Origin: Octopus vulgaris
Taxonomy: Eukaryota
Direction of reading: 5' to 3'
Assembly: GCA_951406725.2 (NCBI GenBank)
Contig: OX597822.1
Location: 1,054,001 to 1,118,000 of the forward strand
Length of the DNA: 64,000 bases
Below the pieces are notes generated by a model. That model had not been told where the DNA came from. It searched no databases and saw nothing but the letters and a program-made list of their open reading frames with translations. Positions 17,898 through 59,734 of this stretch are shown in pieces (position 1 is the stretch's first letter; each line of letters starts with the position of its first letter). The translations under genes and the position numbers were made by a program.

Positions 17898-18790
17898 ATA
17901 TATATATATACACACACACACATATATATATACATATATATTTATAAACACATGAATATGTATTGCTCAACATACATGCGTGCATACACACACAAACATA
18001 TATATATGCATATTTATATACTTATATTCCAATATATGTATATTCATATATACAAATACAAACATGCATATATATATATGTGTGTGTGTGTGTGAATGCA
18101 TACGTGCGCACACGAACACACAATCAGACACATACATATTGTGTGTGTGTGTATGTATAACTGCGTATACGTTTTTGTGTGCGCCCCTATGAGGACCATG
18201 CACTCCATCTGTGCCGCCATCTGCTCTTCGTCTTATCGTCAGTTGTTCATCCAACCATCCCTTCACAAAACAGTCCAAACCCGCCCCACACCGCACTACA
18301 CAATATACCACACGCCTTTTCTAGCTCTTATCTCTATCTTCTCTCAGTTTCTTCCTCCCCCTTCCCCCCCACTATCTCTTTCTTATAAATTTGTCTCTTC
18401 TATCTGGAAATCGCTCAGTGTTTATAGATTTCTGTGGAGGAATTGAAAATGACTGCCTTCAGCACTCACCGGCGGCTTTATCTTGCTTTTATTTATTATA
18501 ATCTATCCCACCACTCCGCTGCCTTTTTTGTAAATTGGGGAACGTGCATATATACAAATATGCAAACGTAACATATATTTGCATAAAGTCAAGTTAACAA
18601 GCTCACATATACACGGTTAGCGTAATTAATGTACATACACTGGAAAACATGTACAGAATCAATTAGCTATACATACGGTACACGTTTATCAAACATTGTT
18701 CAATGAAAAGGGTCTATAATTATATGCATACAATATAAGTGTTTATGTATGTATGTATGTATGTATGTATATATGTATGCATATATATAC

Positions 18791-19551
18791 AACAAATAAT
18801 ATAGGTGGCCTATTAGCAATTTAACCACCTAAAAGCAAGTTAATAGAGGTCATAGAAGTGACAGAGGGTACTAATTCGTACCAGTATTGCTTGAAATAAG
18901 AGTCAAATCAACTCAAAAGCCACAAAGCACCATTTTAATTACTGATAAGGGGAGGTAAGCCCTTAGCGGATGTAGCCAAATCGACGATTTCTGATTTTGA
19001 TGCAGAGTATCTTAATCCTTTTCAATGACTTTTACCACACCCAGGCTTAGACTCAAATCTCTCTGTCACTCTTATAAGAAAACCGTTGAAACACGCGCTG
19101 ATCTCAAAACAGTAAAAGTGTAAGCAATAAATAATATGGGAGGCTTATTAGCAATTTAACAACCTGAAGGCAAATTAATAGATGTCCCTAAAGTGACAAA
19201 GTGTACTAATTAGTACTAGTATTGCTAGAAATAAGAGTCAAAACAACTCGAAAGCCACAAAGCACTATCTTAATGAATGACCGTTTTGAAATCATCGTAT
19301 GTGTTTCAACGGTTTTCTTATAAGACTTACAGAGAAAGTTGAGTTTAACCCTGAGTGCAGTAAGAGTCACTGATGAAGATTAAGTTACTCAGCATCTAAT
19401 TCTGAAATCGTCGATTTGACTATATCCGCTAGGGGCTTACCTCCCCTTGTCAGTCATTAAGATAGTGCTTTGAGGCTTTTGAGTTGTTTTGACTCTTATT
19501 TCTAGCAATACTGGTACTAATTAGTACCGTCAGTAACTTTAGTGACCTCTA

Positions 19552-19555
<4 letters not shown>
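18791..19555. repeat. 335-bp tandem unit (about 1.5 copies) plus an inverted copy, hammerhead-bearing (retrozyme-like or PLE pseudo-LTR)
   Basis: Unit starts at 18791 and 19126. 19281-19555 is the reverse complement of about 18840-19113. No ORF. Confidence 0.85.
19365..19421 (+). ncRNA. Type I hammerhead ribozyme
   Basis: Stem I AGTCA/TGACT, core CTGATGA (19370-19376), stem II AGATTA..TAATTCT with one bulge, GAAA (19404-19407), palindromic stem III ATCG-T-CGAT, predicted cleavage triplet AUU. A decayed antisense copy lies at 18974-19030. Confidence 0.75.
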
Positions 19556-19597
<42 letters not shown>

Positions 19598-19943
19598 ATC
19601 TTTTTTCAAAAACCAAAGCTAAAAAAGTTTTTTTATATATACACATGCTGACATATGACCTACGTTGGTCTCCTTATTCGCATAATCACCGAACCTGGAG
19701 CTTAACTATGGTCTATCCATAGCACTTACTCAGCCCATTACCTGACACCTTCGGTCTTATATATATATAAATTCTTGTTTTATGTTAAGTTACATATTAA
19801 AAAACAATTTAAAGTGTAAGAAAGCCGAATCGTCGAAACCTCTATCCAAGTTTTATTTTTTCTATACATAGATACATACATAATACAATGCAAACGTAGA
19901 TACATACCTCTCATACAAACTTGCATACGTACATGCATACCTG

Positions 19944-24781: not shown

Positions 24782-24829
24782 AACTGTCTGATGAACATTT
24801 ATGTGAAACCGTGAAACTGAATAACAGTT
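24782..24829 (+). ncRNA. Hammerhead-like motif with disrupted stem III
   Basis: AACTGT-CTGATGA-ACAT(TT)ATGT-GAAAC..ATA-ACAGTT. Stems I and II are perfect; stem III does not pair. Confidence 0.55.
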
Positions 24830-41426: not shown

Positions 41427-41609
41427 GTCTATATATGTGTATACATATATATGCGTATGTATATGTGTATACATATATATGCGTATGTATATATGTATAC
41501 ATATATATGTGTATGTATATATATGTATCTATATATATACATATATATATATATATGTATATATATATGTGTGTGTGTGTGTGTATGTATAACTATATGT
41601 TCATATATA

Positions 41610-42725
41610 TTGCTGTGTTCCATGGTGAATTGTTTGTTGCTATTGGTATTGTTGAGCATTGTTTTGAAATTGAGGAGTTTGTCTATGTTATCTTTCCAAA
41701 GTATAAAGCAGTCATCTACATACCTCTTCCAGATCTTTATATAGCAATGAAATGAGGTGCCATATTTTTGTGGTGATGGTTGGTAAGTTCTAGGTAAACC
41801 ATTACAAGGTTCGTAATTACTAGGGCATCTCAGGTTCCCATTGTATTTCCACATTTATGTCGATAATAGACTGAATCGAACATGAAATAGTTGTTCAGTA
41901 GGAGGAATTTCATTGCTGCGATTATGCATCTGTGGTTGATGCGTCCTGAGATCTCTTCTGGGTATTTTTCTACCCAGAAGGAGATTGCTTCTTTGCCATA
42001 ATATTGGTGTACAGGTTCACCACATCGAATGATGCTGACAGGTTTCTTTCATTTCTTGTCTTCGGGAGGTGATTAAACATCTCTAAATCATCCCTGATGA
42101 AGCTTTACTTTAGAAACGGTTTGAGTAAGATGTCGAGGAAATTGCTCAAACGGTGAGTTTCACAAGCAGGACCAGGGGCTTGGGGGAACATGAATGCATA
42201 GGCTTGGAGAATCCTTGCAAGCTTTAGAAATATGTGGATTTTTGTGTATTTTAGGTAATCCGTTGAATAGACTTGGTCTGTATTAAAATTTGGATAAATA
42301 GTCATTTTTTTATGAGGCCCTTTCCATGTATTTAAAATAAGGAGGATAAGTTTTCAATTGTCTTCTGCGGGTTGTATTTTATTATCTTCTCATAGTAAAT
42401 AGTGTTTTCCAACGTGAAGATTATTAAATTTTTATAGTACTCTGTATCCATCACTACTATCGCACTTCCTTTATCGGCTTCTTTAATGGTCATGTTTATA
42501 TCATTTCTTAATTCGGTTTGGTTTTTCCATTCATTTGTGTTAAGGTTGGATTTAATTCCTCGTTTTTGTAGGGTATTGAACGAAAAATTGGTAATGTGTT
42601 CACAAAAATCATCAAGTGCTTTATTTCCCCCTTTTGAAGGCACAGCATTCGCTTTTGTTTATTACTATTGAGTCATCTTCGCTGGTTGTATTTGAGAAGT
42701 GCCTCTGTGAGGCGCAATTTGCGGC
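41610..42725 (-). pseudogene. Penelope-like reverse transcriptase remnant
   Basis: Ordered minus-strand motifs [61 protein letters not shown]. Frameshifted. Confidence 0.9.
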
Positions 42726-50163: not shown

Positions 50164-50661
50164 CCCCTCCCCTCTTTCAAACGAGCCCACAACCTTCGAG
50201 ACCTTTTAGTCCATAGCTCCTTCCCTGACCCTACCTCCCAACCCCGCTCGGTCCCCTGCTCCCGCCCACGTTGCCGCACTTGCCCTTACCTCTCCAACAC
50301 AACCCTCCTCACTAGCACCCATCATCGACCCTATCGCATCATCAACTCCTTCACCTGCACCTCCAGCAATATTATCTATTGCGTCTCTTGCTCTCTCTGC
50401 AATTCCTTGTACATCGGACAAACGGGACGCCGCTTGGCTGACCGGTTCGCGGAACACCTTCGTGACATCCACCTTGCGAACGACACACCAGTCTCACGCC
50501 ATTTCCGCTCCACCGGTCACTCCTTGCAGCACCTGTTTGTGTTCGGTTTGTCCTTACACAGAGGCCATCCGGATTCCCGTTTGCGCCGTGAACAGGAATT
50601 AATCTTCTCTCTTCGCTCTTATACGCCATTTGGTCTCAACTCTCCCCCCCTCCTCATCTAA
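50161..50661 (+). CDS. Penelope-like element GIY-YIG endonuclease domain (5'-truncated, uninterrupted frame)
   Basis: FKRAHNLRDLLV..CSRPRCRTC..FTCTSSNIIYCVSCSLCNSLYIGQTGRRLADRFAEH..PVSRHF..REQELIFSLRSYTPFGLN. There is no native start codon, so it is probably not an expressed gene. Confidence 0.9.
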
Positions 50662-58796: not shown

Positions 58797-58936
58797 AAGA
58801 GGTTCCGAACCTGGGGTCCACAAAGGTAGTACTGGAAGTTCGTGGAGTAAATTCAAAGTTTCGCACACATAATGATAAGCATATTAATAGGGGTCCGTGG
58901 GGAAACTCATTTGAATAAAAGGGATGGAAGCCACCG
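58797..58936. mobile_element. hAT (Charlie-type) MITE nested in the PLE
   Basis: Exact 8-bp TSD TTCTAGAA at 58789-58796 and 58937-58944. Degenerate ends aagaggttccgaac / gatggaagccaccg resemble CAGTGGTTCCCAAC-type TIRs. Confidence 0.7.
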
Positions 58937-59734
58937 TTCTAGAAAGTCCATATATAATCAGATTATTATAGAATTCAATGTTGATAATGTAAATGTTACT
59001 TGCTTTATCTGCTGGTAAAGTATCCCTGGAGCTTTCTCGAAGTTATCAGGTAATTTCTTAATTTTCCGTTAATGTTTGTTGTGCTTTCTAGGGTACTTCC
59101 TGAATTTCACTTTAACTATATTATAAGAGTTCCTCTTCCAATCTGGTTAGGTGTTGGTTGGTCGATGGGTCTTTCCTTCATTTAAGCACTTTTCTGAGTA
59201 AGTCTCCAGTTTCAGGCTTTTCATGTGATATATCTTTTCTGTCAAAGAAGAAAACCTTCCACCGCATTCTGTATATGAACTGGCTGGCTTTTCTCCAAGA
59301 GTGTTCCCTATAGGTATATCTTTTAGCGAAAGGTCGAGTGTTACTTTTACCATTTTCGTGGCACACTCCCTTATAGCATCTTACTCCCGGGAATCAGTCG
59401 TTGTAGTTATTAGTTAATGTATCGTATGGTAAACACATGGTAGTTTGCCGGTAAGCACTGGCTCAGTGTTCGTTGGGTATTTGATTAAAGAGAGAGACGG
59501 AAGATGGAAGATACAAGAATCTTTATTAATCACGACAATTGTTTCGACATGTGACAGTTAGAAAGCAAGGAATATACATCTGGCTTACGAAATCTCGGCC
59601 ATAGAGTTTGGAATTCCGCAAAGATACCTTTTATCACTAGTTTTATTTGGAATAGTGCAAACACCACGAATTGTAACCATCCCGCATCGCATAAAATATA
59701 AGGTGGTTGCGTCCAATGTTTCTATCCAGTATCA

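Follow-up and report, generated by a model that had tools for sequence, protein, structure and literature searches.

A decayed protein-less hammerhead repeat in the octopus genome, likely copied into a TA microsatellite by a Penelope enzyme

Structure of the locus and support for the assembly

We analyzed a 64,000-nucleotide window of the octopus genome (G000:C9:1054001-1118000, from a 2.8-Gb assembly), in which positions 18791-19555 lie between two TA-rich microsatellites. We conclude with good confidence that this locus represents a single old insertion, now decayed, of a protein-less hammerhead repeat of about 337 bp, which was likely copied by a Penelope enzyme into a (TA)n tract and is predicted to be inactive today. 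The locus consists of three pieces of one unit, mutually 85-90% alike. The first arm, on the minus strand, contains a whole unit of 335 bp at 18791-19125 (profile positions 2-337), whose 3' end has a 'tail' of about 47 nt and lies directly against a (TATG)n/(TA)n tract, and upstream of it a 5'-truncated piece of 156 bp at 19126-19281 (positions 182-336), which is joined head to tail with the whole unit and contains no hammerhead. The second arm is an inverted copy of 276 bp on the plus strand at 19280-19555 (positions 11-290, approximately), which stops at a short 3' site, without the tail, against (TA)n. The arms meet head to head at 19280-19281 with a 2-nt overlap, and the outer borders of the locus, left and right, are both unit 3' ends. 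The likely target is the flanking microsatellite sequence, (TATG)n/(TA)n on the left (18745-18790) and (TA)n on the right (19556-19597), as judged from the sequence and from the enrichment of TA at the family level.

An initial annotation of the window had described a 335-bp unit repeated directly, with starts at 18791 and 19126, and then inverted at 19281-19555. The spacing is correct, since 18790-18945 and 19125-19280 form a direct repeat at 335 bp with 85% identity; the second direct copy, however, is not a full one, being the 156-bp piece without a hammerhead. The inverted copy was borne out at 19280-19555 on the plus strand, which is 85% identical to 18840-19113. The four local hairpin motifs noted with it are also present, at 19431/19443, 19481/19490, 19513 and 18803/18825.

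An independent check on the locus comes from the contigs of public sequencing runs. In runs X2, X4 and X6, which come from three studies and bear three organism labels, contigs of 248 nt span the inversion joint with 0-1 differences; a contig from X6 links the left flank to the element, and one from X4 has 4 differences over 448 nt. Run X9, with a fourth organism label, yielded short pieces of the family, and none of its listed contigs is the 18791-19555 locus. Because contigs of three runs span the joint, we take the locus to be real and not an assembly artefact. The same insertion is present at approximately 99% identity in runs of two other organism labels, while its own arms differ by 15%, indicating that the locus long predates the separation of those labels.

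Hammerhead motifs at the locus

The second arm carries a type I hammerhead at 19365-19421 (plus strand), with stem I at 19365-69/19417-21, CUGAUGA at 19370-76, GAAA at 19404-07, a stem III of three pairs and the triplet AUU, the last a trait of its subfamily. The predicted cut falls after position 19416 (19416/19417). The annotation of this motif as a full hammerhead is right in layout, CUGAUGA and GAAA and wrong in integrity: A-U replaces G10.1-C11.1, stem II has private changes and a U.U mismatch, and the inner hairpin contains two mismatches. Its fold is no better than that of shuffled sequences (z +0.65), and when five hammerhead copies were folded singly, their z values of +0.66 to -1.67 put none of them clearly ahead of shuffled sequence. 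A stem II consensus had been drawn from the two copies in the window; it is wrong, as most of the family has an internal AA/AA loop here and the window copy alone has the T at 19395-19397. The scan with hammerhead models that had been proposed as a check, which was run on the decayed window copies, was negative: Rfam gave no hammerhead match in the window at the gathering threshold, nor in 18700-19700 at E<=10.

The first arm has a broken type I hammerhead at 18974-19030, with core UUGAAAA and position 11.1 changed to A. It had been recognized as decayed; it lies on the minus strand, opposite to the motif at 19365-19421. Each strand of the locus thus has one hammerhead, broken in the tandem arm and worn in the inverted arm, and because there is one ribozyme per strand, no transcript of the locus could release a 335-nt monomer. 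The suggestion that tandem transcripts of the locus cleave themselves into such monomers is contradicted, since the sole hammerhead of the tandem arm has the UUGAAAA core and the better one is on the other strand. Given inverted arms of 255 nt, a transcript that reads through the locus would be more likely to fold into a long, imperfectly paired hairpin. The window copy has decayed by 8-10% from its subfamily majority and has lost the strong fold of the family (z -0.95, versus -3.8 to -6.1 for subfamily majorities), and its sequence predicts that it is inactive today. The locus itself is a poor object for experiments.

Size and age of the repeat family

The ORF-less repeat is dispersed in the genome. 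A single 29-mer from it has 193 exact matches and 1,243 matches at up to 2 mismatches, compared with 0 for the reversed control, and DNA searches returned 1,744 and 2,024 candidates at first look, with the best 40 of each scored. A hand estimate from the ratio of exact to near 29-mer matches places the family at about 2,000 segments. We mapped 133 distinct insertions, a small part of the family; most were ranked by similarity to the queries, and 30 loci were chosen by a tail 29-mer alone. Flanks were read for 1.1-1.5 kb per side, and for 8-9.5 kb at 10 loci. The unit is 333-338 bp long (about 337 bp for the family) with a GC content of 0.38-0.40 and one hammerhead. Folded as circles, the majorities of the three subfamily groups tested, out of four, are strongly self-paired (z -5.6, -6.1 and -3.8, with 40 shuffles each).

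Mapping of copy number and arrays, which the initial annotation had called for, confirmed dispersed copies but not long tandem arrays. The largest of the 133 insertions is 1,019 bp, the longest of 173 well-mapped arms contains 2.02 units, and a near-dimer query found no arrays among the best 40 of 919 candidates. Two whole hammerhead regions occur in tandem in nine arms from the 133 insertions; the 18791-19555 locus is not among them. Unit identity between loci has a median of 0.74 and a maximum of 0.90 over 7,234 pairs, and the best matches of six DNA queries reach at most 85-93% among those scored. Because no two loci are more than 90% identical over the unit, the family looks extinct. No RNA run was listed among those that contain the locus. 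In two runs presumed to be RNA, 46 and 34 scattered contigs of low depth fall on one family copy at 80% likeness, which is evidence neither way.

These ages bear on whether the locus or the family could be an active retrozyme that produces 335-nt monomers and circles today. Several observations are in its favor: 9 of 121 ribozyme-bearing copies keep every tested hammerhead feature and 37 keep the core, the nine arms described above have tandem hammerhead regions, young intact Penelope families exist in the genome, and the size of the unit fits the mussel and axolotl retrozymes described in parts of PMC7229834. Against these stand the single damaged hammerhead on each strand of the locus, the absence of loci more than 90% alike, the 85-93% ceiling on the best matches of the six queries, and the count of exact matches to a 35-place ribozyme motif, which is 5. 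Present-day activity is therefore very unlikely in our judgement.

The hammerhead of the family

Taken by majority, the 121 ribozyme-bearing copies give a canonical type I hammerhead that has AUC as its cleavage triplet and in which CUGANGA, GAAA, NUH and stems I-III follow in order. We measured covariation in an alignment of 106 of the 121 rows, from which 15 short, gapped or most divergent rows were left out. The hammerhead positions are paired in 89.5% of 1,802 cells, compared with 20-44% in slid controls. Two-sided changes number 116, compared with 56.2±5.5 in shuffles (0 of 500 reach it), although the rows are related and the changes represent few independent, subfamily-level events. At the second pair of stem II, for example, G-C is found in 52 rows, A-U in 34 and C-G, a transversion pair, in 5. 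The annotation had made its reading depend on a consensus with the CUGANGA/GAAA core and compensatory stem changes, and the family majority has both. The variants of stem III are palindromic, and sections of PMC4209133 link such palindromes to dimeric activity in animal hammerheads.

The 121 copies fall into groups of 64 with a canonical core, 32 of which 21 have U4C, 13 of which 11 have U17 (the AUU triplet), and 12 that are mixed; the group of 13 includes the window locus and one spurious row. AUU is a poor cleavage triplet. The U4C change lowers activity in vitro, yet is tolerated in a viroid, according to passages of PMC3088659. That subfamilies were amplified with such weakened-looking ribozymes (U4C in 21/32, AUU in 11/13) while their stems were kept may, in a tentative reading, point to selection on slow cleavage only, or on the fold itself. 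In conservation the core exceeds the remainder of the unit only slightly, which is what dead copies would show. More divergent sister subfamilies were seen at L184, L186, L193, L196, L201, L203 and L211; they have the tail region in common and differ in stem II lengths and in the palindromes of loop 3.

Insertion scars

Of 190 mapped 3' ends, 101 lie at unit position 325 or higher, 54 at 278-296 and 35 elsewhere, so that 155 fall in two clusters about 47 nt apart. A TA-type repeat follows 104 of the 190, compared with 237 of 2,660 control windows. Two arms are present in 57 of the 133 insertions, head to head with their 3' ends outward, and among the 32 of these that could be classed, 30 have one long and one short 3' end (p=1.2e-7); the other 25 have one end outside both clusters and are not in this count. 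The 18791-19555 locus obeys the rule, with ends at 337 and 290. At L034, L035, L055 and L144 the arms stop at unit positions 88-93, just before the hammerhead, which may represent a third 3' end (4/173 arms).

The segments of one insertion belong to the same subfamily in 25 of 26 pairs, where 37% would be expected, and within-insertion pairs share twice the non-majority bases of between-insertion pairs. This likeness points to one source RNA, and gene conversion could contribute to the bases shared between arms.

A different origin for the layout would be a rearrangement after insertion, in which local duplication or fold-back repair in the AT-rich tract produced the tandem and inverted copies. 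Microsatellite tracts are unstable, and segments within an insertion are slightly more alike than those in different insertions (0.82 versus 0.81). However, random rearrangement would yield neither fixed 3' ends at both outer borders nor the long/short rule in 30 of 32 cases, and the 57 inversions are head to head with their 3' ends outward. The end rule largely refutes this origin, which we regard as extremely unlikely.

Copying by a Penelope enzyme, the reading that we prefer, is consistent with what has been described for Penelope-like elements (PLEs) that bear an endonuclease, in the parts of PMC8557442, PMC3846280 and PMC11167929 that treat their insertions. Like the octopus locus, those insertions have a partial tandem and an inverted 5'-truncated copy with a tail at one end, a (TA)n or AT-rich target, and two internal sites at which reverse transcriptase (RT) starts; unlike those elements, the octopus unit has no RT/GIY-YIG ORF, and its tail is about 47 nt where theirs is 30-40 nt. 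The tail occurs on one end of an inverted Penelope insertion or pseudo-LTR (pLTR) (PMC8557442, PMC3846280), and the Penelope protein of a lizard, once purified, can cut AT-rich DNA on both strands and extend each of them, with two internal RNA start sites bounding the tail (PMC11167929).

By analogy, a Penelope GIY-YIG endonuclease would have cut both strands of a TA tract, and the Penelope RT would have begun copying a single source RNA from two positions within it (approximately 335 and 288), one for each DNA end. Both cDNAs would have run back along the unit, that of arm 1 passing the ribozyme cut site into a second round, and the two cDNA ends would have joined head to head at the 2-nt overlap. 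Possibly, though we hold this tentatively and as somewhat less than probable, the whole family preserves the fossil traces of a Penelope enzyme that copied a single small RNA circle starting from each of the two cut DNA strands, with start sites in fixed long and short roles and with slow cleavage or the fold under selection. If so, the units would be a natural test set for the role of the hammerhead in Penelope transposition.

Search for an attached ORF and a partner family

We searched the insertions for Penelope ORFs using tblastn with five Penelope-type proteins. None of the 133, including the 30 chosen by the tail 29-mer alone, has such an ORF joined to the unit, which agrees with the view that the unit is not always attached to one. 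Protein matches do occur in seven of the unit loci, and none adjoins the unit; L024, L057 and L096 were read in sequence, and L095, L111, L116 and L137 were judged by coordinates. The ORF pieces near L024, L057 and L096 have their own ends, with microsatellites and other sequence between them and the unit. Extension of ten loci to 8-9.5 kb gave no additional Penelope protein match. The majority unit, translated in six frames, has frequent stops; none of its open stretches is as long as a protein domain, and no peptide resembling Penelope was seen. Classification of the family as an autonomous Penelope element was rejected, since an RT and GIY-YIG ORF between the repeats is absent from all 133 mapped insertions.

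The unit might still be the pLTR stump of an old autonomous Penelope whose ORF copies are rare or too decayed, making the locus a 5'-truncated inverted Penelope insertion. Insertions of autonomous Penelope elements have the same layout, tail and (TA)n target (PMC8557442, in part), and truncated schistosome PLEs have dual hammerheads 100-700 bp apart on opposite strands, as described in a portion of PMC4209133. Yet the unit end runs directly into its own start in 53 of the 133 insertions, for up to two units with no ORF between, and this, together with the count of joined ORFs and the lack of a domain-length frame or Penelope-like peptide in the majority unit, makes a stump unlikely.

No partner family was found among three young Penelope families (82 loci): they share no sequence with the unit, and the only matches are two neighboring insertions. 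The unit was rejected as the pLTR of these families, as the 82 loci lack it in their own ends. The earlier proposal of a non-autonomous ribozyme element mobilized by PLEs is supported for the family, on the covarying hammerhead, the insertion scars and the absence of an ORF in 133 insertions, but not for the locus, which is decayed and lacks two same-sense ribozymes.

L181 (G000:C1:27839500-27849400, minus strand) represents a young Penelope-type family with a 4,271-bp tandem unit whose repeats are 100% identical. A 454-codon frame overlaps a 775-codon RT and GIY-YIG frame in it, with a possible frameshift; the RT and GIY-YIG domains were confirmed, and 132 of 132 scored matches are identical across 298 aa. 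A hammerhead descriptor search of L181 gave no match. Pieces of two further young GIY-YIG-type families lie at 50164-50658 of the window (plus strand) and at L096:2013-3127 (plus strand), with most of the 150 scored matches for each at 95-100% amino-acid identity. The piece at 50164-50658 has no Pfam match at E<=0.001, and its reading as GIY-YIG comes from a motif and a tblastn link to the L181 family. Decayed RT-like fragments at 41429-42658 (minus strand) and near 58932-59012 (minus strand) of the window were assigned from Penelope-type motifs seen by eye and a tblastn link; the piece that was tested has no Pfam match.

The template: cut, uncut or circular

The predicted cut site is crossed by 118 of the 173 arms, 11 of them twice, a count inflated by the several queries that spanned the ribozyme. 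The 5' ends do not accumulate at the site (of 53 that map nearby, 3 are no more than 6 nt from it), and in 100 less biased arms the stop rate there is ordinary, at 7.0 per 1,000 nt. Stops are more frequent 5-50 nt downstream of the site, at positions 156-200 (13.8 versus approximately 7 per 1,000 nt, p=0.001, in a window chosen after seeing the data); this excess may come from cut templates whose ends were trimmed, or from pauses of the enzyme at hairpins.

Because arms cross the cut site, a linear monomer cut at both ends was not the template, unless the enzyme jumped between templates. We consider a re-ligated circle somewhat the likelier template, the alternative being a multimer made by read-through and left uncut, or jumps between templates. 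The crossing arms are explained by a circle, which would also restore head-to-tail copies in one subfamily after another; arrays since lost could have supplied an uncut multimer, which likewise fits them. In the lizard Penelope system, uncut RNA is the main substrate, and ribozyme cleavage is dispensable for insertion in vitro (PMC11167929, in part).

Comparison with known retrozymes

Metazoan non-LTR retrozymes have been described in coral, mussel and axolotl by Cervera and de la Pena (2020; PMC7229834), who proposed Penelope as their mobilizer. The octopus family resembles the retrozymes of that account in its ORF-less unit, within 150-450 bp and under 45% GC, in having one type I hammerhead per unit, and in its head-to-tail copies, strongly folding unit and Penelope elements in the same genome. 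It differs from them in that it has no arrays beyond about 2 units, many two-armed inverted copies, an extinct appearance and subfamilies with a U4C core or AUU triplet. Long arrays are typical of published retrozymes. The octopus ribozyme also has a full stem III, in contrast to the minimal hammerheads that part of PMC4209133 reports for most animal Penelope pLTRs.

A more recent survey by Li, Clavereau and Pollet (bioRxiv 10.64898/2026.07.22.740005) treats non-LTR retrozymes as non-autonomous Penelope derivatives; it covers 31 vertebrates, three insects and one coral, and most tested dimers were inactive (1 of 9 cleaved). The octopus family is like those elements in that hammerhead units are likely moved by Penelope and are dispersed as monomers and dimers. 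Unlike them, its Penelope link consists of insertion scars, and no Penelope pLTR was found to be related to it in sequence. That survey takes two consecutive complete hammerheads as its criterion of activity, and the 18791-19555 locus lacks them.

Unit size, GC content, ribozyme type and fold thus fit a family behaving as a non-LTR retrozyme would if a Penelope enzyme mobilized it, and we regard the unit as likely a further representative of the known hammerhead-retrozyme type, likely extinct. A literature search found no paper describing cephalopod retrozymes; supplements, many subscription papers and repeat databases were outside its reach. The words 'octopus', 'squid' and 'cephalopod' are absent from the main text of PMC7229834, whose supplements could list such genomes. 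The advance is a modest one, extending hammerhead retrozymes to an old family in a cephalopod genome. Through the long/short end rule and the arms that pass the ribozyme site, a unit of the retrozyme type is connected with the mechanism of Penelope insertion, a connection that the consulted literature proposes but does not show for retrozymes.

Other features of the window and genome

We compared the unit with a matrix for snRNA-type promoters made from 12 U6 and 12 U2 upstream regions, several of the U6 loci being pseudogene-like, which weakens the comparison. The unit scored no better than shuffles, 54 of 200 of which reach its value. Positions 5-24 of the unit presumably resemble the vertebrate PSE. 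The U2 and U6 genes of the genome (L263-L286) have several distinct upstream types, and many U2 copies and clustered U6 copies among them have a TGGGT-type motif 52-59 nt upstream.

Three more type I hammerhead-like motifs with a 6-bp stem I are present in the window, at 24788, 44458 and 53403 (plus strand); a profile search indicates that they are unrelated to the 337-bp unit. Immediately to the right of the locus, at 19630-19750, lies a very abundant unrelated repeat whose summed contig depth is thousands of times that of single-copy sequence in all four runs.
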